Origin: Candidatus Omnitrophota bacterium
Lineage (GTDB): Bacteria; Omnitrophota; Gorgyraeia; Duberdicusellales; 4484-171
Assembly: GCA_003154195.1 (NCBI GenBank)
Contig: PMCS01000029.1
Location: 132,547-196,546, forward strand
Direction of reading: 5' to 3'
DNA: 64,000 nt
The notes beneath the pieces were generated by a model. That model was not told the DNA's origin and made no database searches. It worked only from the letters and a program-made list of their open reading frames with translations. Of the stretch, positions 5,637-28,852 are shown in pieces. The translations under genes and the position numbers were made by a program. The stretch's first letter is position 1, and each line of letters begins with the position of its first letter.

Positions 5637-6197
5637 TTACCGACAGGCATTTTCTGGGCTAACAGCATATGCCATCAATGCCTGACGCGCCCGTTTAAGG
5701 CGGGAACGTACGGTATTGATCGGTATCGATAACGCTTTGGCGATTTCTTCATAACTCAACCCTTCGATTTCCCGCAACATAATCACCGTCCGCTGGTCGG
5801 GATTAAGCCTATCTAGAAGAGGCTTGAGCTTCTCCTGACGATCATGTAATTCTAACTGGGCGGTTTGTGGTTCAACCGAGACTTCCCGAGGTGATACATC
5901 ATCGATATTTACCTGGCGCTTGCGTTCTTTCGCCGTCCGCCGATAATGGTTGATCGCCGTGTTAACCGCGATGCGGTAAACCCAGGTTTTAAAAGAAGCG
6001 CGAAAAGCGAAACTCTTTAAATTACGGTAAATCTTAACGAATACTTCCTGCGTTACGTCCTGGGCGTCATGGCGGTTGTTAGTGACCCGCATTGCCAGGG
6101 TATACACAAACGAGCTGGCTGTCCGGTAAATTTCTTCAAACGCTTCGATGCCGCCGCCTGCCGCTTTTATCAATACATCCCGGCTAATTGTATCCAT
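5637..6197 (-). CDS. ECF (sigma-70 family, sigma-24 type) RNA polymerase sigma factor
   Basis: 186 aa; region 2 (VFVKIYRNL...WVYRIAVN) and region 4 (LSYEEIAKALSIPINTVRSRL) signatures. Confidence 0.85.
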   Translation of the reverse strand: MDTISRDVLIKAAGGGIEAFEEIYRTASSFVYTLAMRVTNNRHDAQDVTQEVFVKIYRNLKSFAFRASFKTWVYRIAVNTAINHYRRTAKERKRQVNIDDVSPREVSVEPQTAQLELHDRQEKLKPLLDRLNPDQRTVIMLREIEGLSYEEIAKALSIPINTVRSRLKRARQALMAYAVSPENACR

Positions 6198-6354
6198 ATC
6201 CTTTTACCGTTCAATATCTTAGACAATATGGTTATTAAAAAAGTTCCTTCCGGCGGCGCGGGATTCCCCTCTTCCACAGCTAAACAGCTCTTTCCTGAAA
6301 AAATGCGCCATGTCTGCTTATCGGCCCGCTTCGCCCGCGAAGCGAGGCGAGCAG

Positions 6355-6633
6355 TCAGGCCTTTTCCCTGTTAAGATTACCCAATTGCTTTTCTACAACC
6401 CATTTCTCCGGTTTTACTTTCGCCAGAAACCAGGGAGCGCCGTTGGCGAGCCAGCGTTTGCGGAAAACGGCGAACGCCTCGCGGCCGTCAGCCACGTCAA
6501 AGCCGAATTCAAAACCGCAGCAGGGACAAATCTCATAGGAAGGTATATTACTTTCGCCATAAGGCGGCTCTTTTAACCCGTCAAAGCCGCACACCGGACA
6601 GATATATTTTTTTTCCCTCATTGTTTCGACCAA
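6355..6633 (-). CDS. zinc-ribbon protein (hypothetical)
   Basis: CPVCG...CPCCG paired CxxC motifs; overlaps upstream lipoprotein gene by 16 nt (operon). Confidence 0.4.
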   Translation of the reverse strand: MVETMREKKYICPVCGFDGLKEPPYGESNIPSYEICPCCGFEFGFDVADGREAFAVFRKRWLANGAPWFLAKVKPEKWVVEKQLGNLNREKA

Positions 6634-7028
6634 TACCGGTAATCGGTTTTAAAATAGGTTCGAATCCGGCCGCCGGCGGTCATCACCGCGAACTCGCCGC
6701 TGCTGACCCGGTAGCGTAAGATGTCGCCGTTAGATCTGGACTTGCCCAACACATCGTTATCCGGCGGCGTGTTCAACAAGGCGCGGGCGTTATCTAAATA
6801 TTGCTCCTGGGTAATCCCGCCGAATTGATCGCCGTGTTTTAAATAATGCGCCTCCAATTCGCCGGGCGCAAAATCCCCTGCCGGAACACCGGCCACATAA
6901 GTAGTATCGGTTTGTGGGATAGAAGACACCGGGGCATTGGACGGGGAACAAGCCGCCGTAAAAAAAGATATAAAAACAAGAAAAAGATACCCGGCGGCAA
7001 TTTTACGCGCGCGATTTTTTGTCGGCAT
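6618..7028 (-). CDS. lipoprotein, hypothetical (weak barnase-like C-terminal resemblance)
   Basis: Lipobox LVFISFFTAAC after internal Met; C-terminal RIRTYFKTDYRYW segment vaguely like microbial RNase; unassigned. Confidence 0.35.
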   Translation of the reverse strand: MPTKNRARKIAAGYLFLVFISFFTAACSPSNAPVSSIPQTDTTYVAGVPAGDFAPGELEAHYLKHGDQFGGITQEQYLDNARALLNTPPDNDVLGKSRSNGDILRYRVSSGEFAVMTAGGRIRTYFKTDYRYWSKQ

Positions 7029-8841
7029 ATTCAACCTCATTGATATAATCCCCCACCACATTTAAAAAAATACCGCCATACTGATTGAGCTTAACTTCGC
7101 CTACGCCAAATACGCCTTTAAATTGTTCCGCCGTGGTTGGTTTTTTCAAAGCAATATCTTTTAAGGTTTTGTCGCTAAAGATAATATACGCGGGAACATT
7201 TTTTTCCTGGGATAGCTCGGAGCGTTTTTGACGCAACACTTCGAAAAGCTGTTCATCCACGCCTTCCCAGTCTTTAGCGCGTTTAATTTTAACTTTCTTT
7301 TCAACTTCTTTTTTTGCCTGGCCCAAAACCGGCTTAGCCAGAGTAGGCACGGCCTCTCCTCCCAGAGCTTTCAAACCGGAGTCGGAAATACCAAGGGTTA
7401 CGAACTCGCCCTCTCTTATCAAATAACCCTGGCCTACGAGTTGTTCAATAATATTCCTTATAAAAACTTTTGTTTCATTGTTCATTTTCGCGAATGTCGC
7501 CAATGTATCGTGGCCCCAGTTTTTTACTTTATCGGTATTGTTCCCTTTCAAAATATCCGCGATATGATCCGCGCCAAATTTTTCTTCTACCCCGGCGACA
7601 CAGGAAATAATCGTTTGGGCGATAAGCAACGGATTATCGATAACTTCAACCTCGCCGAGGCAAAAATCACACGCCGCGCAATTATTTTCCTTATAGCTCT
7701 GGCCGAAATAACTTACAAGATATTTATGCCGGCACTGCGGATGCGAACAAAAATCATATAAGGTTTTAAGCTTTAGAAGCGCGTTGTTTTTCTGGGAAGA
7801 ATCTTTCAATATATATTCCCAGGTCTTATAATCATTCCAGGAATAAAACATATAGCATTCACTCGGCAAGCCATCGCGCCCGGCGCGGCCTGTTTCCTGC
7901 TGGTAATGTTCGATTGATTTAGGCATCGCGGCATGAATTACATAGCGTATATTTGACCGGTCGATACCCATACCAAAAGCTATCGTAGCAACGATGAGGG
8001 AAATTTTTTCGCGGGAAAATTCATCCTGATTTCTTTTACGGTCTTCATCGGACATGCCGGCGTGATAAGGGACATTTTTATAGCCCAAACTATTTAATTT
8101 TTCGGAAAACGCGTCCACGTCTTTGCGGCGTAAACAATAAATTATTCCCGGTTCATTCTTATATTTTTTGATAACATTTACGATATTTCCCGTAATATTT
8201 CCCGAACGCGCGATGATTCTATATACAAGGTTGGACCGGTCAATCGGGCCAAAATACAGATGCGGAGAATCTAATTTCAGCTGCTCTACAATGTCTTTCC
8301 GGACATCCTCGGTGGCAGTAGCGGTAAAGGCGTGAATATTACATTGATTAAATTCATCCTTAAGGCAGCCGAGCCTTCTATATTCTGACCGGAAATCATG
8401 CCCCCAGTGGCTGATGCAATGCGCTTCATCAATGACAAAAAAAGAAATTTTCACGCCGCGTAATAACTCTAAAATATCCGGCGTCATAAGCCTCTCCGGC
8501 GATATATACAACAATTTTAAACCGCGTGATTGGATTTTTTCAATGATTGCCTTTTGCGCGGAAACGGTAAAGCTTGAGTTTAAACACTCGGCATTAATGC
8601 CTATTTCCTTTAAATAATCAACCTGGTCCTTCATCAGCGAGATCAAAGGCGAAATAACCACCACCATCCCTTCGCACAACAACGCCGGAACCTGAAAACA
8701 AATTGATTTTCCCCCGCCTGTCGGCAAAATAGTAAGGGTATCTTTACAGTCAAGAATAGACAAAATCGCCTCTTCCTGAAACGGCCTAAAACTGTCATAC
8801 CCCCAATATTTGGATAGGGTTTTTAAAATTACGTTTTTCAT
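7003..8841 (-). CDS. recQ: ATP-dependent DNA helicase RecQ
   Basis: RPFQEEAI, LPTGGGKS (Walker A), DEAH box, RecQ-Ct Zn-binding cysteines and C-terminal HRDC-like region; start set at MKNVILK. Confidence 0.9.
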   Translation of the reverse strand: MKNVILKTLSKYWGYDSFRPFQEEAILSILDCKDTLTILPTGGGKSICFQVPALLCEGMVVVISPLISLMKDQVDYLKEIGINAECLNSSFTVSAQKAIIEKIQSRGLKLLYISPERLMTPDILELLRGVKISFFVIDEAHCISHWGHDFRSEYRRLGCLKDEFNQCNIHAFTATATEDVRKDIVEQLKLDSPHLYFGPIDRSNLVYRIIARSGNITGNIVNVIKKYKNEPGIIYCLRRKDVDAFSEKLNSLGYKNVPYHAGMSDEDRKRNQDEFSREKISLIVATIAFGMGIDRSNIRYVIHAAMPKSIEHYQQETGRAGRDGLPSECYMFYSWNDYKTWEYILKDSSQKNNALLKLKTLYDFCSHPQCRHKYLVSYFGQSYKENNCAACDFCLGEVEVIDNPLLIAQTIISCVAGVEEKFGADHIADILKGNNTDKVKNWGHDTLATFAKMNNETKVFIRNIIEQLVGQGYLIREGEFVTLGISDSGLKALGGEAVPTLAKPVLGQAKKEVEKKVKIKRAKDWEGVDEQLFEVLRQKRSELSQEKNVPAYIIFSDKTLKDIALKKPTTAEQFKGVFGVGEVKLNQYGGIFLNVVGDYINEVEYADKKSRA

Positions 8842-9909: not shown

Positions 9910-10260
9910 TTAATTTACCGCTATTCCATATGTACGAATTTCATACGAAAAAGTACTGTAGGGGTCTGTTAAGCCTGCGGGTGAAAGCGGGATAGGTTCT
10001 ATATGCGAATCTATTTGCATAGCAAGCCGGCGTAAAAGCATCATTTCTTTTATAGCATCACGGCCAAATTGCCTCGAAATAATCGCTATGTCAATATCGC
10101 TGTCTTTGGCCGCATTACCTTTAGCGTGTGAACCAAACAAAATCATCTTTGACACACGAATACCTTGCTTACGCAACAATACGGCAAATTTACGTATAGT
10201 TGTTTTATCTTTTGTTTTTATAGATGTTTTTGAAGCCATACCAATAATCCTCCGGTACAT
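9910..10260 (-). CDS. nucleotidyltransferase (MNT-type) antitoxin-like protein
   Basis: LFGSHAKGNAAKDSDIDIAI minimal NTase motif; overlaps HEPN partner. Confidence 0.75.
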   Translation of the reverse strand: MYRRIIGMASKTSIKTKDKTTIRKFAVLLRKQGIRVSKMILFGSHAKGNAAKDSDIDIAIISRQFGRDAIKEMMLLRRLAMQIDSHIEPIPLSPAGLTDPYSTFSYEIRTYGIAVN

Positions 10261-10559
10261 TTAATATATTTTGCCGAAAATACTTTTGTGGCTTTCTTAG
10301 CAAATTGAAGTTTATAATCATCGTACCGCGCCGCAATATTAAACGTACTGATTTCGGATAGATCAGTCTTATTTTTATCGTCAAGAACAATACCCGCTTT
10401 TTCCGCCAACCGCACTAAATCGTGCACAAACGGCGGCGCGCTATTGGTCTTTTTAACGATAACCGCCTTAAGCATTTTCTCAATGCATAAGTGACAGAAA
10501 AATAATGCGTGACTATAATTACCGCCGCGGCAAAATCTTCTTGCGATGATGTGCGCCAA
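10218..10559 (-). CDS. HEPN domain protein (HEPN/MNT pair)
   Basis: AEKxLKAVI...PPFVHDL...ARYDDY pattern typical of HEPN (PF05168-like) proteins paired with MNT. Confidence 0.6.
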   Translation of the reverse strand: MAHIIARRFCRGGNYSHALFFCHLCIEKMLKAVIVKKTNSAPPFVHDLVRLAEKAGIVLDDKNKTDLSEISTFNIAARYDDYKLQFAKKATKVFSAKYIKCTGGLLVWLQKHL

Positions 10560-10589
10560 TATTTTACGATATCCTGCTGTTTCATGTTG

Positions 10590-10880
10590 AAATTATAGTA
10601 TCATACCGGTTTCATCGGTCAAGATTTTTATCAAGGATTGACGTAAAAGTCTATAAAGATTATTAAATCTGTAAAGATCATAAAAATTGTAAAAACCACA
10701 TAAAACAAAAAAGCTTAATAAAATCAAAGATGCTTGATTTTATTAAGCTTTTTTGTTAAAAATGGCGGGGACGAAGGGACTCCATCCGTTAAATCAAAAT
10801 AAGCGTTGATTTCATTAGTTTATTTTACGTTTCATCGCTTTGGTGTGTAGTAAATTGGGTAGTAAAATCGATGTAATTTT
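10590..10880. repeat. ~230-bp direct repeat carrying a 17-nt copy of the tRNA-Asp 3' end (10763-10779) plus terminator hairpin; att-like boundary, copy 1
   Basis: Shares AAAAAGCCTAACAAAATCAAAAGATGCTTGATTTT(A/G)TTAGGCTT...AAAAATGGCGGGGACGAAGGGA and ~100 further nt with 13430-13660; left part also shared with the intact tRNA-Asp locus at 15590-15790. Confidence 0.8.
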
Positions 10881-10968
10881 TATTTAGCAGTTAGCAGTAA
10901 TTCTTCGATTTTATAGTATCGCGTACGCGGCGCGTTTTTGCAAGTTTCTTTGCCTACGTATCCTATAA

Positions 10969-11679
10969 TTATTGCTTTTCAAATATAAAATAGTTTTGAT
11001 AAGGCAGTAATGTCGAGTCTTCTTTTATTAATTTAAAGCCGGCCTTGCATACCAGCGATAACATTTCCTTGCCGCATATCTTTATATTTTCCGGCGGACC
11101 TTCCGGAAGCTTACCTTCTTTGAATTCGATGAGTATAAGCTTATCGCCTTTTTCCATTTCCAAATTTAATTTCGCAAGCCATTCGGCGCGTTTATTGACA
11201 TGGTGCAGTACATCACAGATAAATACTATATCCACATTTTTAGGTATTTTCGGATCTTCGTATGTAGCCAATACCGGTTCAATATTTTTAATCCCCGCAG
11301 ACATAGCTTTATGGTGGACATAACGCAGCATCTCCGGTTCCGTATCTATTACTATTACTTTCCCCTTAGGCAAGGCTCTTGAAAAACGGAAAGAAAAATA
11401 ACCCGAACCAGCGCCCAAGTCTACCAAAGTTTCGGAACCTTTTAAATTCAGTGAAGAAACTATCTCATTGGGCTTTTGCCAAACGTCTCTATCCTTTCTC
11501 TCCAAAAATTCAATGTATTTTTCTGTATCTTCGAACGGTTTCATGTTGTGTACATTGATTCCTTGTTTTCTTAGCGGGCATTCTATTGGAACTTTTATAT
11601 TCCCATTCCCGGAATAACCGCAACAAGCAGAGATAGCAAATAAGAAAACTGGCAAATATAGAACTTTTTTAATGTTCAC
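10969..11679 (-). CDS. class I SAM-dependent methyltransferase with N-terminal signal peptide/lipobox
   Basis: VDLGAGSGYFS motif I; MNIKKVLYLPVFLFAISACC leader; AT-rich islet. Confidence 0.65.
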   Translation of the reverse strand: MNIKKVLYLPVFLFAISACCGYSGNGNIKVPIECPLRKQGINVHNMKPFEDTEKYIEFLERKDRDVWQKPNEIVSSLNLKGSETLVDLGAGSGYFSFRFSRALPKGKVIVIDTEPEMLRYVHHKAMSAGIKNIEPVLATYEDPKIPKNVDIVFICDVLHHVNKRAEWLAKLNLEMEKGDKLILIEFKEGKLPEGPPENIKICGKEMLSLVCKAGFKLIKEDSTLLPYQNYFIFEKQ

Positions 11680-11722
11680 CTATACCTTTCTTTTTAGGTC
11701 TACGTTTGTGTATTATTAAGTT

Positions 11723-12121
11723 TTATATTTTAACTTCCGGATCTATATTCATTAAAAATTCGGCAGCCTTCTCAACACATCCTAAGCAAGACAGTTTCTT
11801 TAACCGCCTTATTTCCTCGCAAGTCAGGGCTCCGGCATGCCCGATAAAAAAAGCTTCGCATTCTTTACGTTTATATTTCCCGGTAAGCTCTAAAATATAC
11901 AAAGCAGAATAGAACGCACCGCAATAACCTCCCGGCGCCAAACCACCGCCACAATCAGCATGACTATCCAAATCTTTATGCGTAAAGTTACTTTTTTCAG
12001 AATAAGAACGCGACACTGATTCAGCGCAATTAAATTTTTCCCCGTTCTTTCCTAAAAAATAGTCTTTTGCTTTGTTTTTCATATTCTGCCGATTTAATGG
12101 CCGCACCCGTGTTGGGCACAA
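11723..12121 (-). CDS. Cys-rich putative redox protein (C_GCAxxG_C_C-like)
   Basis: CGGGLAPGGYCGAF...CLGCV cysteine pattern; family assignment tentative. Confidence 0.4.
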   Translation of the reverse strand: MCPTRVRPLNRQNMKNKAKDYFLGKNGEKFNCAESVSRSYSEKSNFTHKDLDSHADCGGGLAPGGYCGAFYSALYILELTGKYKRKECEAFFIGHAGALTCEEIRRLKKLSCLGCVEKAAEFLMNIDPEVKI

Positions 12122-12501
12122 GCATTTTGCATAGTTATCTCTTCAAGCCCGCCTTTGGTAAACTGGCTGACAATATCTGCAACTGTTCCCGGAATAGCCC
12201 GATAAATCTTAATCCCACCTTCGTTAAGCTTTTGAACTGCCCGAGCGCCCATCCCACCGGTAACCACGGCGTCAATTTTCTTACCCATTAACGCATTCAT
12301 TGGCTGGCACATACCGTGCTCATGATGCTGATTGGCATTATCAATGATTTCTACAGAGTCTTTCTCTGTATCGATAATTGTAAAATACGGCGCGCTGCCA
12401 AAATGTCCGTAGGCTAACGCTTTCATGCCTTCATTTGTTTCTGTTGGAATACATAATTTCATTTTATTGCTCCCTTCTTGGCTACGATAAGAGTTTGACA
12501 T
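12094..12501 (-). CDS. NifX/NifB-type dinitrogenase FeMo-cofactor-binding domain protein
   Basis: KIAIPTE-like start (KLCIPTETNEG), FGSAPYFTIID, AVVTGGMGARA motifs of PF02579; adjacent to DUF134 gene as commonly observed. Confidence 0.65.
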   Translation of the reverse strand: MSNSYRSQEGSNKMKLCIPTETNEGMKALAYGHFGSAPYFTIIDTEKDSVEIIDNANQHHEHGMCQPMNALMGKKIDAVVTGGMGARAVQKLNEGGIKIYRAIPGTVADIVSQFTKGGLEEITMQNACAQHGCGH

Positions 12502-13088
12502 ACATCCTTATAAACTTTAACAACCAATCCTGTTTTCTCTAAGTATTCCTTTACACCCAACAATGATAATTTAGACGCCTCATGCTTATGCCCATCTAAC
12601 GCATGCACCTTTTCCATAACTTTTTCGCCTTGTTTATTCAAATCGGCAATAATAAGTTTGTTTTTAGCCACCCTAATCATTTCCTTTAAACATTTAACCG
12701 GATTCTTAGCGTGATGGATAAAATTTACTGAAATCACATAATCAAAAGAGTTATCTTTGTATTTCAACCTCTCGGCATTCATAATCTTAAGCAATACAAA
12801 TTTATCGAGCTTAAGGCTTTTAAGTTTTAGCTTGGCTGCATTTTGAGCTTTTCTATCCAGATCTATAGAGACTAGCTTAAATCCATTTTTTGCCAAAACA
12901 ACCGCCATGTGGCCCCGACCCGTACCAACCTCTAACATCTTCCCCTCTGAAATTTTTGCTTTTTTAAGAATGAATTCTCTGGCTTTAGGGATATCATAAC
13001 CATGTCTCTTAAATAACTTCAGTCTATCTTGATCTTGTTTTATCAAATTATTCACCTTAACCAACCTTTTTAACAGTTCCGCCTTCAA
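12459..13088 (-). CDS. class I SAM-dependent methyltransferase
   Basis: LEVGTGRGHMAVVLA motif I; 209 aa. Confidence 0.65.
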   Translation of the reverse strand: MKAELLKRLVKVNNLIKQDQDRLKLFKRHGYDIPKAREFILKKAKISEGKMLEVGTGRGHMAVVLAKNGFKLVSIDLDRKAQNAAKLKLKSLKLDKFVLLKIMNAERLKYKDNSFDYVISVNFIHHAKNPVKCLKEMIRVAKNKLIIADLNKQGEKVMEKVHALDGHKHEASKLSLLGVKEYLEKTGLVVKVYKDVCQTLIVAKKGAIK

Positions 13089-13353
13089 TCTTTAATGCTT
13101 TAGTGTTTAAAAGAACGTCTGCTACTTTTCTATGGGCTGAATTTATAATATTACCGAACGTCTGTCGGGAAATATCCATTTTCTTAGCTGCATCCACCTG
13201 ATACAAACCTTCTAAGTCCGCAAGCCTCACTGCCTCCAATTCATCCAAGGTAAGATTAATCTCTTCCAGCACATCCAAAGGTATACCGCGAGGCTTGAAA
13301 TAATTTGCATCGGGATTACACCTTATTCTTCTACACCTACAAGGCCTAGACAT
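13057..13353 (-). CDS. DUF134 (UPF0251) predicted DNA-binding protein
   Basis: RPCRCRRI...YFKPRGIPL N-terminal signature and C-terminal HTH-like region. Confidence 0.65.
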   Translation of the reverse strand: MSRPCRCRRIRCNPDANYFKPRGIPLDVLEEINLTLDELEAVRLADLEGLYQVDAAKKMDISRQTFGNIINSAHRKVADVLLNTKALKIEGGTVKKVG

Positions 13354-13429
13354 ATACCTTCCTTTTAGTTATTGGCATATGCTAATAATACCACCTTAGC
13401 ATCATTCGTCAAGCTGAAAAGGTTTATAT

Positions 13430-13660
13430 AAAATTATAAAAATCCTGAAAATTGTAAAGATTATAAATCTAGTGAAAACCCCATAAAAACAAAAAAGCCT
13501 AACAAAATCAAAAGATGCTTGATTTTGTTAGGCTTCTTGCTTAAAAATGGCGGGGACGAAGGGAATCCATCCGTTAAATCGAAATAAGTGTTGATTTTAT
13601 TAGCTTATTTTATCTTTTTTCACTTTGGTGTGTAGTAATTTGGGTAGTAAAATTGATGAA
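13430..13660. repeat. ~230-bp direct repeat with tRNA-Asp 3'-end fragment (13548-13564); att-like boundary, copy 2
   Basis: See 10590-10880. Confidence 0.8.
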
Positions 13661-13721
13661 AATTTTTGGAGTTTTATTGCTATTGCGGTATCCGAAAAAA
13701 ATATTAATTGGAAAGGACGGG

Positions 13722-14330
13722 CTATCTCCAGCGTTCCGGACGGACAAATTGCTGATTGTCTATTTTTACAACATCGGGGAATTGACAACTGGCGAGATGC
13801 TTCTCTTTAAGTTTTATATGAAAGTCGGCAACTTGCTTTAATTCTTCCGCGCGCCTTCCGATAGGAATTACTATTCCAGTTTTTTTGGCCGGAAAAGTTT
13901 CCCTAACCGCTTTGATAGCGGGAATTAAATCACTATCGCCGGAAATAATTACCGCCGTATCCCAAATATCCATAACAGCGGTCTTAAAAAGTGATATGGC
14001 TATATTTACATCGGTTTGCTTTTCTTCAAAAGTTTGATACTTCTTTCGGCAATTTCGGCAAGTTTTATCTACACGCCTGAATGCTCCCAGCACCACGTCA
14101 ACTCCCGCCGATTCCAATATCCTTACATATTCACGATGGCGTTCCATTTTTGCAGCATCCCATGTGGCATATGTAGTAAAATAAGTTGTTTTAACAAGCT
14201 TATCATTGGGTGGGATTAATAATTCGGCGAGCCTTTTAAGATTGAGCCATTTATATTTGTGATATCTCGGCTCATCATTTAGAGAATGATAGAGATTAAA
14301 TCCGTCGACAAAAAAAGCTAGTCTGCCCAT
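13722..14330 (-). CDS. NYN (LabA-like) domain protein
   Basis: FVDGFNLYH...ISGDSDLIPA motifs typical of NYN/LabA nuclease fold. Confidence 0.65.
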   Translation of the reverse strand: MGRLAFFVDGFNLYHSLNDEPRYHKYKWLNLKRLAELLIPPNDKLVKTTYFTTYATWDAAKMERHREYVRILESAGVDVVLGAFRRVDKTCRNCRKKYQTFEEKQTDVNIAISLFKTAVMDIWDTAVIISGDSDLIPAIKAVRETFPAKKTGIVIPIGRRAEELKQVADFHIKLKEKHLASCQFPDVVKIDNQQFVRPERWR

Positions 14331-14559
14331 ATTATACCTATATAAAAAGTAAAAAACCCGAACTCACGAGAAGTTCGGGGCCAACGGGATATTATCCCAT
14401 TGGGATGATGGTTTTATTTTACATCTGGAAAGGCGATTGTCAATACCCTCGATCAATTTATACCATATAGCTTGTAAAATTGCCAACTCGTGGAAAAATT
14501 GCCCCCTTTTATACCAAGGCATAAAATTGTATGCCTTGGAATAAGAAGTATCAAGATCT

Positions 14560-15369
14560 TTATCCTTTTGGCTCTTTATTTTCTTCTTTATTACTTGACG
14601 CTATCGGTATACCTGATGACGGCATACCCACCATAATGGTATTGCCCGATGTTCCTCCAATTGTTTGAAGAATACGAAGCTGCATGAGAGCCGGATTGTC
14701 TTTTACTAAACTGGCGGCATTAGCCAAGTTTCTTAAAGCCGCTGCTTCGCCTCTGGCTTTTTCTAAAATAGCTAGCCCTTCTTTTCGCGCCTTCACTACT
14801 TGCGCGAACACATTTTTAAGTTCTCCGGGAAACATAATATCTTTAATGTCTGCGGCAATCAGCTTTACGCCTAATGCTGCAATTCGTTCTTTGGTTGATT
14901 CAGTCAGCCGCTTACCAAATTCGGAACGTTTTTCCATAAGCTCGTCGATAGCCGCTGAACCAATGATTTCCCGCGCGGCTAACTGCAGTATCAAATAAAC
15001 CGCTTCCTGGTAATTTTCAGTTTTGTTTATGGCTACAACGGGGTCGGTAATCTCATATTGAGCGGCAATGCTTATTTTTAAGGTAACGCCGTCCGAACTC
15101 AATATCTCTTGCCCTGGTACCGTCACAACTTTAGGACGTATGTCGACTTTCTGGATAACGGTATACATACGTAAAAACCAATGACAACCGGCATCAAGAA
15201 TTTTTACCAGTTTACCTTTCTGATACAACAGTCCCTTTTCATATTCAAAAACAATAGTTTTGCCGACAATTTTAAAAAAAACAATTAAAACAGCAATAAT
15301 TCCTAAGAGATAAAAAAACCACATATCGACCTCCTTTGTTTTTAAAAGGTTCTGCCTTAAAAAACCCAT
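14560..15369 (-). CDS. SPFH/band-7 (stomatin/slipin-like) membrane protein
   Basis: N-terminal TM then band-7 core (PGQEILSSDGVTLKISIAAQYEI...) and coiled-coil tail. Confidence 0.8.
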   Translation of the reverse strand: MGFLRQNLLKTKEVDMWFFYLLGIIAVLIVFFKIVGKTIVFEYEKGLLYQKGKLVKILDAGCHWFLRMYTVIQKVDIRPKVVTVPGQEILSSDGVTLKISIAAQYEITDPVVAINKTENYQEAVYLILQLAAREIIGSAAIDELMEKRSEFGKRLTESTKERIAALGVKLIAADIKDIMFPGELKNVFAQVVKARKEGLAILEKARGEAAALRNLANAASLVKDNPALMQLRILQTIGGTSGNTIMVGMPSSGIPIASSNKEENKEPKG

Positions 15370-15707
15370 ACTATAACAGCGGAGGTTTTATCCTACATAG
15401 CTGTTACCGCGTTGCCACTTAAAGCCGGGCCTTTTAAGACAGAACGTAGGGAATTGAACCCCTGGTTATCGCCAGGTGGAAGTGCAACTGCAAAACCGTC
15501 GGGAGATTCCAGACGATTGCCGGCATCTTCCAATTATTATTATCCCACGAACATCTGAAAATACAAGAATGCTGCAAGTTCTTTGTGACGTAAAATTATA
15601 CAAACCTTAAAGATTATAAAAGCTGTAAAAATCCTAAAAACCATAAAAACCAAAAAAGCCTAACAAAATCAAAAGATGCTTGATTTTATTAGGCTTTTTG
15701 TTAAAAA

Positions 15708-15786
15708 TGGCGGGGACGAAGGGATTTGAACCCTCGGTCACATGCGTGACAGGCATGGGTCTTGAACCGGGCTAGACGACGTCCCC
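15708..15786 (-). tRNA. tRNA-Asp (anticodon GTC), CCA encoded
   Basis: Cloverleaf readable by eye; anticodon loop CTGTCAC; its 3' 17 nt are duplicated at 10763-10779 and 13548-13564. Confidence 0.75.
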
Positions 15787-16049
15787 ATTTTTTCCTGCGG
15801 CTTTGCCGCAGGAAAAAATCTGTCAATCCGTCTTACGACGGATTGAAATAAAATTATAGCTTCAAATATTGTTTAGTCAACTTATCTTGTAAATTAATAA
15901 AGAACAACGTAATATTTATTTTTATGTTTTTCTGCTTCTAAAATCTATTTCGAAATGGCGGAAGGCATTTTCTCCGCAACTTGAAAAATGCGTAACCGTA
16001 TTTTTCAAGTTGCTATATTTTTTTTCGCTCTTAATAGAGCGAAAAAAAA

Positions 16050-19061: not shown

Positions 19062-19182
19062 ACTTGGTAAAGGTTATGGTAATGAAGCCGGTATAAAAAC
19101 TTGGTTAAGGTAAAGGTTTTAAGATTAGTATCAACCTTCGCCTTGCCTTAACCCAAACCGGCATCGTAACCTTAACCTATAT
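19062..19182. repeat. family 1 (GGTTAAGG-type) intergenic repeat, shorter copy between parB and ndk
   Basis: Shares GGTTAAGG...CCGGCATCGTAACCTTAACC ends with other copies. Confidence 0.6.
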
Positions 19183-20010
19183 TTTTATCCTGCTCAAAAC
19201 CCTCTCCAAATCCGAAAGATTAAAATACTCGATGACAATCTTTCCCCGGTTATTCTTTTTGTGGGAAATTTTTACCTTGGTGCCGAGAATTTTTTGCAGT
19301 CTTTCTTCTACTTCTAAAACATGCGGGTCATTGATTTTTTTCTTCCGGGAAACGCTTCTGACTTTTTTTTCTATTTCCCGCACCGGAAGCGGCCCGGCTA
19401 AAATCTGTTGGAATAATTTCTTCTGCTCTTCCTCGTTCGCCAGACCAAGAATTGCCCTTGCCTGGCTTCGACTGATCAGTCCCCGGCTTAACGCCTTCTT
19501 TATTTCTTCCGGAAGCTTCAGCAGCCGGAGCGTATTGGAAATGGTAGTTTTGTCTTTACTGACAAATTTGGCGACCGTATCCAGGGTAAATTCGAATTCC
19601 TCCATTAATCTTTTAAAAGCCTGCGCTTCCTCGATGGCGTTCAAATCCTTGCGCTGCAAATTTTCTATAATGGCAACCGTTAACGCCTCTTTATCGTCAA
19701 TGTCCTTAATAATAACCGGCACCTGCGTTAATTTTAATAATACCGCCGCTTGATAGCGGCGTTCTCCCGCGATAACTTCATATTTATCCTCGGATGCCTT
19801 GCGCACCACTAAGGGTTGGATAACGCCTTTTTCTTTGATGGACTGAGACAATTCCTCCAAGTCTTTTTCATTGAAATCCTGGCGCGGCTGGTATTTACCG
19901 GGTTGCAGTTTTTCTAAAGACAGGTAAGCAAATTCTCTCGGCGTAGCCGGCAGGGTAGCTTTTTTAGGAATGAGCGCGTCTAGTCCTTTACCCAATACTC
20001 TTTTTTCCAT
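19177..20010 (-). CDS. parB: chromosome partitioning protein ParB/Spo0J
   Basis: GERRYQAAVLL ParB box, KGLDALIP N-terminus, HTH region; start set at MEKRV (ORF-track upstream extension begins at TTG inside a repeat element). Confidence 0.85.
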   Translation of the reverse strand: MEKRVLGKGLDALIPKKATLPATPREFAYLSLEKLQPGKYQPRQDFNEKDLEELSQSIKEKGVIQPLVVRKASEDKYEVIAGERRYQAAVLLKLTQVPVIIKDIDDKEALTVAIIENLQRKDLNAIEEAQAFKRLMEEFEFTLDTVAKFVSKDKTTISNTLRLLKLPEEIKKALSRGLISRSQARAILGLANEEEQKKLFQQILAGPLPVREIEKKVRSVSRKKKINDPHVLEVEERLQKILGTKVKISHKKNNRGKIVIEYFNLSDLERVLSRIKI

Positions 20011-20255: not shown

Positions 20256-21023
20256 TTAATTAAGCTTAATCGGTTCTTTTAAAATCTCCTGCGCAAGGTT
20301 TAGATATGCTTTAGCGCCCACGCAATATTGGTCATAAAAATGTATAGGCTGGCCAAAGCTCGGCGCTTCCGCGAGCCGGATATTACGCGGGACAATACTG
20401 TTAAAAGCTTTCTCTTTAAAAAATCCGCGCACTTCCTCTATTACCTGAAGACTCAGGCGGGTTCGGAAATCAGCCATCGTCAGCAAGATTCCTTCAATCT
20501 CCAGATCCGGATTAAAACGCTGACGCACCAACTCTATGGTGTTGACTAATTTGGCAACGCCTTCCAGGGCATAATATTCGCACTGAACCGGAATTACCAG
20601 ACTATCGCAAGCGCACAGGACATTCACAGTCAATAAACCCAGGGACGGCGGCGCGTCAATAATCAGGTAAGAAAAGTTATCTTTTATTTTATCAAGTTCT
20701 CTTTTTAATTGCAACTCTCTATTTTCCACATTAACCAATTCGATTTCCGAACCAGTCAACGCAACCGTGGAAGGCATAAGGGAAAAATGCGGCCACTGGG
20801 TAGGATAAATACTTTCCTGTAGCGTCTTGGTGCCGGCAATCACATCGTAAATAGAATTCTTATCCGTATTGTCAAACCCCACCCCGCTAGTCGCATTGCC
20901 TTGCGGGTCCATATCGATAAGAAGTACTTCTTTACCGCTTAAGGCAAGGTAAGAAGCAATATTAATCGCGGTAGTAGTTTTACCAGTACCCCCTTTTTGG
21001 TTACAAACACCGATAATTTTACC
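20256..21023 (-). CDS. parA: chromosome partitioning ATPase ParA/Soj
   Basis: Deviant Walker A KGGTGKTT; start set at MGKIIGV. Confidence 0.85.
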   Translation of the reverse strand, partial: GKIIGVCNQKGGTGKTTTAINIASYLALSGKEVLLIDMDPQGNATSGVGFDNTDKNSIYDVIAGTKTLQESIYPTQWPHFSLMPSTVALTGSEIELVNVENRELQLKRELDKIKDNFSYLIIDAPPSLGLLTVNVLCACDSLVIPVQCEYYALEGVAKLVNTIELVRQRFNPDLEIEGILLTMADFRTRLSLQVIEEVRGFFKEKAFNSIVPRNIRLAEAPSFGQPIHFYDQYCVGAKAYLNLAQEILKEPIKLN

Positions 21024-21115
21024 CATAACGCAAATCACCAGAAATACTGTCATTAATTCATAACTCATTGTGCCGCAATGAGTTATGAATATTTTAATCC
21101 TCTTCTCTATCCCCT

Positions 21116-21131
21116 GTTTTCACGTGAAAAC
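21116..21131. promoter_or_regulatory. parS-like 16-bp perfect palindrome GTTTTCACGTGAAAAC (copy 1)
   Basis: Resembles canonical parS TGTTNCACGTGAAACA around a CACGTG core; 4 copies between parA and yidC. Confidence 0.55.
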
Positions 21132-21283
21132 GGCTGGCTGGTTAGATTACCTTTCGCACAATCCCACGCACCAATAACCAAACTTTGGGGAAAATAGTTC
21201 ATCCCTTGCATAGTTGGAACAGATTACCGGTTCATTTAATTCTAAACGTAACAAGGCAATGGTTAACCAAATAACTCTGCCCC

Positions 21284-21299
21284 GTTTTCACGTGAAAAC
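21284..21299. promoter_or_regulatory. parS-like palindrome (copy 2)
   Basis: Identical 16-mer. Confidence 0.55.
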
Positions 21300-21356
21300 G
21301 TAATTATAGTTTAATACTTAATTTAGTTTTTGCAAGAAATTTCTGCGCCCTGACCA

Positions 21357-21372
21357 GTTTTCACGTGAAAAC
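21357..21372. promoter_or_regulatory. parS-like palindrome (copy 3)
   Basis: Identical 16-mer. Confidence 0.55.
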
Positions 21373-21526
21373 GGAAGCGGTTCCGCGTACGTCAGGTAAA
21401 TATTTTTCGCACGTTTCAAATAGTGGAAAACCTGTGAAAATTGTGATTTCATGCAAATCGGCAACCTGCAGGTGTGGTTTTCTGGTGCATGAATAAACGG
21501 GAAAAATACATTTCCCGGGTTACCGC

Positions 21527-21542
21527 GTTTTCACGTGAAAAC
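21527..21542. promoter_or_regulatory. parS-like palindrome (copy 4), abutting yidC stop
   Basis: Identical 16-mer. Confidence 0.55.
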
Positions 21543-21543
21543 G

Positions 21544-22980
21544 CTATTTTGACCTGGCAAGATGAATTTGATAGAGGAGAGTCAAAAAATTCTGAATAAA
21601 CCAGTAAAGGGCTAAACTGGAAGGAAAATTATAGAAAATAACCCCGATAAAAACCGAAAAAAACAGCCCCATTCGTCTTTGGTCAACAGAAACCGCAGGG
21701 GAAACGGTAAATCTTTGTTGCACTAAACCCACACCCATTATTAAAAGCGGTATGATATTGATATAATCCACAGGGGGTGGAAACCCGAGCTTGATTGCGT
21801 GATCGGGAAGAGTTAAATCTTTAATCCACAAAAACTTAGCGCCTTTTAACTCGGTAAGACTTAAAAAAACCTGATAAAGCGCAAAAAACAAAGGAAACTG
21901 CAAAAAAACCGGCAAACATCCGCCGATTGGATTTACTCGGTATGTTTTATAAAGTTCCAATATTTCACTATTTAATTTTTGGGGATTATCTTTATACTTC
22001 ACTTTCAATTCTTCAATATGCGGCTGAATTGCTTGCATTTTTTTCATCGCCCGAGTGCTTATATTCGTAAGCGGAAACAGGATGATAAAAATTAAAATTG
22101 CTAAAATTATTATGCCTAACCCCCAACTTTTGGTAAGGTCATGACAAAAAGAGAATAGTTTGACAATAATAACACCAATACCATGAAAAAAACCATAATG
22201 TATAACACTTTGTAAACCAAAGGGTTGCAACGATTTTTGTAGTTGAGGGCCCACATACAAAGTCACTTCGGGCAGAGGAGAAACAAGGAGCAATGAAACA
22301 TTATTTTTGTTATCTTTGGCCCACTGAATATCATATTCGCCTTTAATTAAAGAGGCGCAAAAATATTGGGTCCGGCTGCCGGCAAAATCAACTTTTTCTA
22401 CCAACTTATCTTTTACTTTAGGCAGCGGCATCCGTTCCATCAGCAGGTTTTGAGAATAATAAATTCCTTGATACCTGTGCTGTAACTGGTTGGCGCTCAA
22501 AATGTTATGAAATAAAACCATCGAAGAAAATGGTGAAACCTTGATGGTAATTAAGTTTCCCTCAAAAATAAACTCTTTGCGGATATTATCGGCAGTAAAA
22601 ATAAGACGGTTTTGGTTAATGTTTACGGAAAATTTCTTATCCCGGTCAGCCGGAGTAAAACCGATATCTTTGATCAATAAGTCATCTGTGGGATAAGAAT
22701 TTAATTTTACAAAACTTACGTAACCACCGATGGCAGAATAAGTTATGGTGAAATTGTCCAATTTAAGTTCAGGTAAAGATGCAGTAACTTCTTGAGGAAC
22801 ATTAACGCCGGAAGCAGGAGCGGTAGAGGATTGAACAGCTTGTTGTGGCGTAACAGGTTGCTTTGATTGCTCACCTAACGGGACAGTATTTTTAGGAAAA
22901 TATTTAGCCCCGATATAGGAATAAACAGTTAAAAAAAGAAAACTCACTACAATTGCGGCAATAAATCGTTTGGTATCCAT
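21544..22980 (-). CDS. yidC: membrane protein insertase YidC
   Basis: N-terminal TM, periplasmic domain, C-terminal 5-TM Oxa1 core (MKKMQAIQPHIEELKVKYKDNPQKLN...). Confidence 0.85.
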   Translation of the reverse strand: MDTKRFIAAIVVSFLFLTVYSYIGAKYFPKNTVPLGEQSKQPVTPQQAVQSSTAPASGVNVPQEVTASLPELKLDNFTITYSAIGGYVSFVKLNSYPTDDLLIKDIGFTPADRDKKFSVNINQNRLIFTADNIRKEFIFEGNLITIKVSPFSSMVLFHNILSANQLQHRYQGIYYSQNLLMERMPLPKVKDKLVEKVDFAGSRTQYFCASLIKGEYDIQWAKDNKNNVSLLLVSPLPEVTLYVGPQLQKSLQPFGLQSVIHYGFFHGIGVIIVKLFSFCHDLTKSWGLGIIILAILIFIILFPLTNISTRAMKKMQAIQPHIEELKVKYKDNPQKLNSEILELYKTYRVNPIGGCLPVFLQFPLFFALYQVFLSLTELKGAKFLWIKDLTLPDHAIKLGFPPPVDYINIIPLLIMGVGLVQQRFTVSPAVSVDQRRMGLFFSVFIGVIFYNFPSSLALYWFIQNFLTLLYQIHLARSK

Positions 22981-23106
22981 TTTGAATTAGAAAAATCTGT
23001 TGATCGGTTGTCAGTTTTTATGATTACCGATTGTGGTCGATCGTCGACCTACCTTTAATATGCGGCCATTTGCCCTTAAGCGGTACCCGATGAGCTTAAC
23101 ATACTT

Positions 23107-23313
23107 TCAATGTACCGGGTCGTGCCCGCCATAATTTCGCGGGTTACAGCGTCCAATGCGGCAGATGGTCAATCTAGCCGCTTTTAAAAAAGAGTGCCGC
23201 TTAAAAGATTCTTCGGCGTACTCGGAGCAGCTGGGATAATATATACAACGCGACGGAAACAAGACGGAAATCCGGCGGTAAAGGGAAATTAAAAAAATGA
23301 TAATCCCGTTCAT
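23107..23313 (-). CDS. yidD: membrane protein insertion efficiency factor YidD
   Basis: 68 aa; YYPSCSEYA...RC.P...GGHDPV motif; start ATG overlaps rpmH stop (ATGA). Confidence 0.8.
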
Positions 23314-23447
23314 ACCGTTAGTTTCTTTCTGCCCTTTTTCCGGCGCCTTGCCAAAACTTTTCTGCCGGAAGCATTATCCATCCGCGCGCGAAAGCCATGC
23401 CGCCTCTTACCTTTTAATTTAGTGGGGGTATGAAGATTTTTTTTCAT
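23310..23447 (-). CDS. rpmH: 50S ribosomal protein L34
   Basis: Not in ORF track; hand translation [45 protein letters not shown]. Confidence 0.85.
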
Positions 23448-23653
23448 AGGCAAAAGATTTTAACATAAATTAGTTTTGTGTCAACATACAAAAAATACAA
23501 AAAATAATTGCAAAGAAGAATTATTGAAGTATAATAAGGGTTACATATTTTTTAGAAAAGCCGGTAATAACTTGAAAGTATCGGAATTCCTGTTGTTCCA
23601 ACCATCCTTTAATCTGGTTGTGAATAAACTGTCTAAATTGTGAATAGACTTTT
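23448..23653. promoter_or_regulatory. AT-rich rpmH-dnaA intergenic region, candidate oriC/dnaA promoter with DnaA-box-like sites
   Basis: TGTGAATAA at 23619-23627 (1 mismatch to TGTGGATAA) and TGTGAATAG at 23639-23647; low GC. Confidence 0.35.
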
Positions 23654-24985
23654 ATGGAAAACTTGTGGGAAAATTGCAAACAAGCATTGCGTAAAAACAT
23701 CGGCGATATATCCGTGGATACCTGGATTGCGCCGTTGCATCCTAAAAAAATCGACGGCGCCGGCATTATTTTAGAAGCCCCCGACGGCTTTTTTAAAAAT
23801 TGGGTGGAATCGAACTACCTTGATCAGATAAAACAATCGTTTAAAGATTTATTCCAAAAAGATGTTGAGGTAACTTTTGAAGTCAATACCACCCTTCTCA
23901 AAAGCAGGACAAATAAAGTTTTAAAAGATATCAATAAAACATTTCAGCCTGCTTCGCCGGACTCGTTTCGCTTGAATCCGCGTTTCACGCTGGATAATTT
24001 TGTGGTCGGCGCCTCCAACCGGATGGCTCACGCCGCTTCTGTAGCAATTACCGACGCTCCGGGGAAAGCCTATAATCCGTTATTTATTTATGGCCGGGTG
24101 GGGCTGGGTAAAACGCATTTAATGCAAGCTATCGCTCACGCCATGTTTTTAAAAAATTCTCAAAGCCGGGTTAAATATACCTCTTCGGAAAAATTTACCA
24201 ATGAGTTGATTATGGCGATTCAAAACCGGACTACGGATAAATTCCGCCAGAAATATCGGGAAATCGACCTTCTTTTAATTGATGATATTCACTTTCTCGC
24301 CGGAAAGGAAACGGCGCAGGAAGAATTCTTTAATACTTTTAACGTCCTTTATGATTACCATAAACAGATTGTTATGTCCAGCGACCGGCCGCCTAAAGAA
24401 ATCCCGAAGTTGGAGGAGAGGCTGGTTTCGCGTTTTGGCTGGGGGCTAGTGGTAGACATCCAACCACCGGATTTTGAAACCAGAGTGGCGATTCTTTATA
24501 AAAAATTAGAGAAAGACCCGGTGAAAATAGATGAAGAGGTGATTTATTTTATCGCCAAGAATATCAGCACTAATATTAGAGAACTCGAGGGGGCGCTGAT
24601 AAGGATTATCGCCTATTCTTTGATTGAGGATAAACCAGTTACTTTGGAGTTGGCAAAAGACATTTTAAAAGATATGGTGAAAGAAATATACCGGCGGATT
24701 ACTCCGGAAATTATCCTGGAAAGGGTGGGGGGATATTTCAATACGCAGATCAACGACTTAAAAAGGGGTAAACGTAATAAAAATCTAGTTATTCCGCGTC
24801 AGGTCGCGATGTATTTAATAAGAGAGCTTACGGAATTATCCCTTCCTGAAATCGGCATGTTTTTTGGCGCAAAACATCATACAACAATTCTCTATGCTCA
24901 CAAAAAGATTAAAGAAGAGCTGAATAAAAACGAAAAACTAAAATTAATTATCCACACCATTACACAGGAGATTAAGGGTTTATAA
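23654..24985 (+). CDS. dnaA: chromosomal replication initiator DnaA
   Basis: AAA+ Walker A GRVGLGKTHL, box VII, C-terminal DNA-binding HTH. Confidence 0.95.
   Translation: MENLWENCKQALRKNIGDISVDTWIAPLHPKKIDGAGIILEAPDGFFKNWVESNYLDQIKQSFKDLFQKDVEVTFEVNTTLLKSRTNKVLKDINKTFQPASPDSFRLNPRFTLDNFVVGASNRMAHAASVAITDAPGKAYNPLFIYGRVGLGKTHLMQAIAHAMFLKNSQSRVKYTSSEKFTNELIMAIQNRTTDKFRQKYREIDLLLIDDIHFLAGKETAQEEFFNTFNVLYDYHKQIVMSSDRPPKEIPKLEERLVSRFGWGLVVDIQPPDFETRVAILYKKLEKDPVKIDEEVIYFIAKNISTNIRELEGALIRIIAYSLIEDKPVTLELAKDILKDMVKEIYRRITPEIILERVGGYFNTQINDLKRGKRNKNLVIPRQVAMYLIRELTELSLPEIGMFFGAKHHTTILYAHKKIKEELNKNEKLKLIIHTITQEIKGL

Positions 24986-26184: not shown

Positions 26185-26185
<1 letters not shown>
25085..26185 (+). 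CDS. dnaN: DNA polymerase III beta sliding clamp
   Basis: 366 aa three-domain clamp; follows dnaA; conspicuously AT-rich relative to neighbours. Confidence 0.9.

Positions 26186-28852
<2,667 letters not shown>

Follow-up and report, generated by a model that had tools for sequence, protein, structure and literature searches.

A candidate variant parS array beside parAB in Omnitrophota co-varies with ParB residue 173

Introduction

Few protein-binding DNA sites of bacteria are as conserved as chromosomal parS. Here, we analysed a 64-kb window (the whole stretch of DNA under study) from a Candidatus Omnitrophota bacterium (GenBank assembly GCA_003154195.1, contig PMCS01000029.1, positions 132,547 to 196,546 of the forward strand), in which four copies of the 16-bp palindrome GTTTTCACGTGAAAAC lie between yidC and parA, and compared this array and the neighbouring parB product with the parS sites and ParB proteins of described ParABS partition systems.

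The sites of the canonical systems of B. subtilis, Caulobacter and Thermus follow the consensus TGTTNCACGTGNAACA. Those of the studied primary-chromosome systems all share the GTTNCACGTGNAAC core, and secondary replicons have different palindromes, such as the parS of Burkholderia cenocepacia chromosome II, gTTTATGCGCATAAAc (PMC7022226, Table 1). The canonical half-site is numbered T0 G1 T2 T3 N4 C5 A6 C7 (Jalal et al. 2020, PMC7383237). In the crystal structure of the Caulobacter ParB-parS complex, R173 hydrogen-bonds guanine 1; R173 and G201 have been described as invariant in ParB orthologues, and a lysine at 179 or 184 as permissive (PMC7383237). The known re-specification at residue 173 and base 1 within the family is that of Noc, a Firmicutes ParB paralogue that binds the Noc-binding site (NBS) TATTTCCCGGGAAATA, its specificity having been changed through Q173, K179/K184 and R201 (Jalal et al. 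2020, PMC7383237).

Results

Four identical palindromes occupy the yidC-parA spacer

Exact search located four copies of GTTTTCACGTGAAAAC, with start-to-start spacings of 168, 73 and 170 bp, in the spacer upstream of the parAB genes:

21116..21131: candidate variant parS site 1, GTTTTCACGTGAAAAC (exact match), ~90 bp upstream of the parA start
21284..21299: candidate variant parS site 2 (exact match), 3 nt downstream (on the minus strand) of the TATAAT at 21308-21303
21357..21372: candidate variant parS site 3 (exact match)
21527..21542: candidate variant parS site 4 (exact match), 1 nt past the yidC stop codon TAG (21544-21546)
21027..21543: yidC-parA intergenic spacer, 517 bp, which holds the array
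20256..21026, minus strand: parA, 256 amino acids from MGKIIGV, with the deviant Walker A motif KGGTGKT (Pfam AAA_31, 211 bits)
19177..20010, minus strand: parB, 277 amino acids from the ATG at MEKRV, with ParB_N (GERRY motif), HTH_ParB and ParB_C domains

Even with two mismatches allowed, no further match was found outside the array in the 64-kb window, and none of 100 dinucleotide-preserving shuffles contained four matches (mean, 0.03). The 12-mer core TTTCACGTGAAA recovered the same four positions in the window, while the CACGTG hexamer, found 5 times in 64 kb against ~11.5 expected, had four of its five occurrences within the array. The whole IMG/VR viral collection holds 10 solitary copies of GTTTTCACGTGAAAAC and no arrays; four copies within 430 bp are therefore far beyond chance. 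Beyond the 16 bp, the copies share a loose CC...GG flank only, and no longer repeat unit was found around them. The spacings correspond to about 16, 7 and 16 helical turns, a phasing that is not shared by the relatives described below and that we consider a coincidence. Another contig of the same organism (L040) begins inside parB and lacks the spacer, and thus cannot serve to confirm independently how the array was assembled.

The palindrome departs from canonical parS in its outer dinucleotides

As in canonical ParABS systems, the repeated element is a perfect 16-bp palindrome with a CACGTG core, origin-proximal, clustered by parA-parB and present in several copies. Unlike canonical parS, its arms read GT instead of TG, with T replacing guanine 1 and G at position 0. 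Four of the 14 specified positions of the consensus TGTTNCACGTGNAACA differ, whereas the 12 central bases (parS positions 3-14) are kept identically, and the four sites, which a search for this consensus with up to three mismatches did not recover, lack the GTTNCACGTGNAAC core bearing G at position 1 that marks canonical parS. An earlier sequence-only reading of this DNA had reported four identical palindromes, with these coordinates and spacings, between parA and yidC, beside parAB and ~2 kb from dnaA (2.1 kb by our measure), and had called them a symmetric variant of parS with the same CACGTG core; our exact search and base-by-base comparison agree with it on each of these points.

We then compared 82 Omnitrophota half-sites with 214 canonical half-sites drawn from non-Omnitrophota loci. 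Position 1 is T in 80/82 Omnitrophota half-sites and G in 206/214 canonical ones; position 0 is G (69/82) or A (12/82) in the former and T in 173/214 of the latter, while positions 2-7 are alike in both sets. These counts show that the variant corresponds to a swap of the outer dinucleotide or, equivalently, to a guanine moved one bp outward, changing the half-site from TGTTNCAC to GTTTYCAC. The swap from TG to GT removes guanine 1, the base contacted by Caulobacter Arg173.

The adjacent ParB carries lysine in place of Arg173

The window ParB belongs to the ParB/Spo0J family, with a TIGR00180 score of 191.8 bits (cut-off 58.45) and with domains PF02195, PF17762 and PF23552 all above their cut-offs. 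It has the three-domain architecture of canonical ParB proteins, in which an N-terminal ParB/Srx domain bearing GERRY, a GERR-type motif for the binding of cytidine triphosphate (CTP), precedes the helix-turn-helix (HTH) domain and a C-terminal dimerisation domain. No second ParB-like gene was found in the 64-kb window. Its residues were mapped by ungapped alignment to the Caulobacter ParB of structure 6T1F, and three segments (residues 151-155, 181-183 and L143) were confirmed by translation:

19582..19584, minus strand: L143, aligned with Caulobacter Q162, a conserved parS-contacting residue
19546..19560, minus strand: residues 151-155, SKDKT, aligned with Caulobacter G170-K171-S172-R173-S174; S151 stands for G170, D153 for S172, and K154 replaces R173
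19462..19470, minus strand: residues 181-183, RSQ, aligned with Caulobacter A200-G201-H202; R181 stands for A200, S182 for G201 and Q183 for H202

In Caulobacter numbering, used hereafter, the window ParB therefore differs from canonical ParB by K173 in place of R173, together with D172, L162, R200, S201 and Q202, and the R173/G201 signature of parS specificity is absent (K154 and S182 in its own numbering). A184 corresponds to K165 (in RLLKLP), so that the permissive lysine 184 is present.

The closest homologues of this protein (60-67% identity) are encoded by metagenome-assembled genomes annotated as Candidatus Omnitrophota or Omnitrophica. K173 is found in all of the 120 nearest homologues, 117 of which display a GKDKTT-type motif, the remaining three differing at residue 171 or 172 (GRDKTT, GQDKTT, GKNKTT/GKNKAT), and an SR[ST]QAR-type motif is likewise present in 120/120. 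Among the 150 nearest cluster representatives at 50% identity, residue 173 is R in 143, K in 6 and H in one. L162 accompanies K173 in five of the six K173 representatives, and one ParB (P0149) combines Q162 with K173.

Site type co-varies with residue 173

The K173 set comprised 10 non-redundant lineages (201 kb), namely the window and nine relatives: the loci of eight of the Omnitrophota ParBs described above (L121, L123, L125, L127, L129-L132) plus L133. These lineages hold 35 variant sites and no canonical site (up to one mismatch), whereas 114 loci encoding an R173 ParB (1.19 Mb) hold no variant site and 89 canonical sites, distributed over 46 loci (up to one mismatch). All but one of the variant sites (34/35) lie in the spacer just upstream of parA, the last one being just upstream of yidC, and neither the 64-kb window nor ~137 kb of related loci contained any outside the array. 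A canonical control set came from a scan of metagenome contigs with an Omnitrophota ParB alignment, which picked generic peptide patterns and returned ParBs that are 36-46% identical, none of them with K173; a scan of genome contigs with the single window ParB yielded no hit above 50% identity. L001 and L002, two R173 relatives whose ParBs are 50% identical, each carry one canonical parS between the upstream gene and parA, where the array sits in the window.

The eight loci share the gene order yidC, spacer, parA, parB, ndk, yicC, gmk, rpoZ, and in each of them 2-8 copies of [G/A]TTTYCACGTGRAAA[C/T] lie directly upstream of parA. In the window, palindromic repeats stand beside parA-parB near the origin, as expected of a ParABS centromere, and the position upstream of parA is kept in the nine lineages beyond the window, each with 2-8 copies of GTTTYCACGTGRAAAC. 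The array spacings differ from one lineage to another, a pattern more in keeping with independent loading sites than with an operator of fixed architecture. In L129 (closed genome CP070807.1), L131 and L133, dnaA is outside the locus and the array is still beside parAB, indicating that the array travels with the partition genes and not with the origin genes. In L130 (8666-9193), the array consists of a 371-bp unit duplicated in tandem (2 x 4 sites), with the degenerate copies GTTTCCACGTGGCAAT and ATTCCCACGTGGGAAC among them.

L133 is the most informative of these relatives, with a ParB 50% identical to that of the window, a locus GC content of 28%, and the motifs SKDKS and TPGHAR. Its ParB has K173 and L162, yet retains G201/H202, and the locus contains GTTTTCACGTGAAAAC twice without any mismatch, ahead of yidC and in a 35-bp yidC-parA spacer. 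Since the same 16-mer occurs with G201/H202 retained, the variant goes with K173 (together with L162 and D172) rather than with the changes at 200-202. The L133 ParB gene (6001-6834) also encodes GHRRY in place of GERRY in the N-terminal CTP-binding motif.

We considered whether the palindromes might be operators of another CACGTG-reading regulator of parAB or yidC, their likeness to parS being coincidental. The sites indeed flank the TATAAT hexamer and a predicted promoter-like site, and L133 has one copy upstream of yidC and one upstream of parA. By contrast, the 12 central bases are identical to those of parS, R173 relatives carry canonical parS at the equivalent position, the site type switches with a base-contacting residue of ParB, copy number (2-8) and spacing vary freely as expected of loading sites, and no candidate regulator gene is linked. 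We therefore regard a non-ParB operator as unlikely.

The co-variation also bears on the proposal of the sequence-only reading that the array is the partition centromere and defines a lineage-specific ParB recognition sequence. A generic repeat, the alternative it had named, is not supported, as within the 201 kb searched the motif is confined to the parA-upstream region in the window and the nine other K173 lineages. The competing canonical parS that it had also envisaged did not appear: in the window, with up to three mismatches allowed, there was none but one chance-level match at 57902, and none was found in the K173 loci with up to one mismatch. Finally, the HTH comparison that it had suggested revealed differences at DNA-contact residues (R173K, G201S, Q162L and S172D) that co-vary with site type over 124 loci. 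Confined upstream of parA and co-varying with ParB, the sites lend the proposal support at the sequence level.

One lineage (L135) departs from both sets, as its ParB (P0124) has a histidine at 173 (GKDHS). No canonical or variant parS was found within 10 kb, and one degenerate site, TTTTTCACGTGAAGAA, is present at the parA start (7165-7180). This H173 lineage may represent a third specificity state.

Promoter- and origin-related features of the spacer

Three further features frame the array:

21498..21517, minus strand: terminator-like hairpin downstream of yidC, which separates site 4 from sites 1-3
21544-22980, minus strand: yidC
23654..24985, plus strand: dnaA, the origin marker (TIGR00362, 551.8 bits), whose start is 2.1 kb from the array

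The spacer also holds one predicted promoter-like site, and its small open reading frames (21027-21543) have no family support. Because the sites flank a likely parA promoter, sites 1-3 lying between the yidC terminator and the parA start, ParB binding may, speculatively, also autoregulate or tune parAB transcription. A stronger version of this idea is that ParB-bound sites serve mainly as an autoregulatory operator of parAB and that the true segregation centromere is elsewhere in the genome. Every site of the window is upstream of parA, a -10-like hexamer stands right next to site 2, and the visible genome amounts to 64 kb. Nevertheless, such an operator is compatible with a centromere role, since ParB spreads from whichever parS it is loaded on and builds a partition complex, and no other site of either type lies within 21 kb on one side and 42 kb on the other. 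A mainly regulatory array with a distant centromere appears unlikely on the 64 kb searched.

An inverted repeat with perfect 15-bp arms, ATTCATAACTCATTG-tgccg-CAATGAGTTATGAAT, is located at 21056-21090, between site 1 and the parA start, and an upstream ATG that is in frame (21068) falls within it; the repeat may be a hairpin of the 5' untranslated region or an operator for another factor.

The cumulative GC-skew minimum falls at ~22 kb of the window, which places the array in the replication origin region and raises the question of whether the palindromes are parts of the origin itself (DnaA-related or unwinding elements), or hairpins of the repetitive extragenic palindromic (REP) or terminator type. 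Besides the position of the spacer at this minimum, site 4 scored as terminator-like on the plus strand, and a weak DnaA-box-like stretch in the spacer (21423-21446, 24 nt, GTGGAAAACCTGTGAAAATTGTGA) resembles the dnaA upstream region, being 79% identical to 23620-23643, just upstream of dnaA, which contains the DnaA-box-like TTATTCACA; the two stretches may be a weak DnaA-box pair, or their likeness may be due to chance. However, no DnaA box with up to one mismatch was found in the spacer, which argues against an origin role, and an Rfam search of 20500-24000 gave no match. Moreover, the array keeps with parAB in the loci without dnaA, and its sequence, not its mere pairing, is conserved across 50-67% ParB identity, whereas hairpins would drift by compensatory changes. 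We consider origin elements or hairpins a highly improbable explanation of the array.

Gene neighbourhood

On the minus strand, the genes follow the order gmk, yicC, ndk, parB, parA, spacer, yidC, yidD, rpmH; after rpmH, the plus strand carries dnaA, dnaN, a DciA-like gene and gyrB. The parA product scored 101 bits with the NCBIfam ParA equivalog, below the cut-off of 180; as an ATPase gene with a deviant Walker A motif (KGGxGKT) immediately upstream of parB, it corresponds to ParA/Soj.

The gene for the RNase P protein, rnpA, is usually located between rpmH and yidD/yidC. No rnpA was found at this place in the window, and none was called between rpmH and yidC in L125 and L131. In the window, rpmH (23310-23447, minus strand) overlaps the start of yidD (23107-23313, minus strand), and yidC comes next. 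The small gene between dnaN and gyrB (26185-26463) matches Pfam DciA with 30.8 bits, and its position is kept in related Omnitrophota loci. The region 10000-16000 has a GC content of 0.37-0.39, against 0.42-0.50 in the rest of the window.

Discussion

Taken together, these results indicate that the four palindromes are very probably the chromosomal partition centromere, parS, bound by ParB and present in the clade-specific variant GTTTYCACGTGRAAAC. ParB and its site would have been re-specified together, because the outer guanine moved and the arginine that hydrogen-bonds guanine, R173, became lysine. We favour, by a modest degree, a more specific hypothesis in which R173K, probably with Q162L, retargets the chromosomal ParB of a large Omnitrophota clade from TGTTNCAC to GTTTYCAC half-sites. 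The system is best classed as a variant ParABS centromere, despite its lack of canonical parS and of the R173/G201 pair.

If the array works as described ParABS systems do, each of its four sites would be a nucleation point for a dimer of the neighbouring ParB, engaged through the HTH domain. As other ParB proteins do, ParB would then bind CTP through the GERR domain at its N-terminus, shut as a clamp and slide along the flanking DNA, such that an origin-proximal partition complex would form and be segregated by the adjacent ParA ATPase.

Several points weigh against this interpretation. ParB occupancy of the sites, clamp loading, segregation and the residue causing the switch are what we infer from the letters of the genomes compared. 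Our search spanned 64 kb in this genome and up to 21 kb per relative, and canonical or variant sites, or a second ParB paralogue, are possible beyond these limits. The reach of lysine is shorter than that of arginine, so that a reading of T1 or G0 by K173 is hard to account for. One Omnitrophota-labelled ParB (P0126, MFC1704189.1) has R173, so that the variant is not proven phylum-wide and the switch may lie inside the phylum. Finally, the K173 lineages probably represent one or two deep clades, hence few evolutionary events rather than ten independent ones, which limits the statistical weight of the co-variation.

The variant pair resembles Noc and its NBS in that an HTH of the ParB family appears re-specified, with residue 173 and base position 1 involved, and in carrying the permissive lysine 184. 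Unlike Noc, a duplicated paralogue, the altered protein is here the orthologous, parA-linked ParB; residue 173 is K and not Q, and residue 201 is S/T or G and not R. The Omnitrophota site keeps position 6 and the CACGTG core, whereas Noc also changes position 6 and reads an NBS with a CCCGGG core. In agreement with these differences, the Noc equivalog TIGR04285 gave 230 bits on the window ParB, below its cut-off of 315, placing the pair outside Noc/NBS. The B. cenocepacia chromosome II parS offers another parallel, as a distinct 16-bp palindrome with a dedicated ParB and the same GTTT...AAAC outer arms. By contrast with the Omnitrophota variant, which lies on a dnaA-bearing chromosome and keeps the canonical core, sites of secondary replicons have a different core and exist alongside a canonical primary system. 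A literature search for the 16-mer, the 14-mer, and Omnitrophota with parS or ParB found no description of this variant, subscription-only papers being outside its coverage.

A site and its reader that changed together across an uncultured clade provide a natural and simple test case for the evolution of DNA-binding specificity, with few candidate causal residues (K173, L162 and D172). This case concerns an orthologue whose function probably had to be kept throughout the change, and not a duplicated paralogue. In practice, the centromere of these genomes will escape parS searches based on the consensus, and the variant pair could be used as a further orthogonal ParB/parS label when loci are imaged. 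If the proposed re-specification is true, specificity in the family would have changed by a second route in addition to that of Noc, R173 would not be invariant as reported, and the result would be a natural ParB-parS pair orthogonal to the canonical system.

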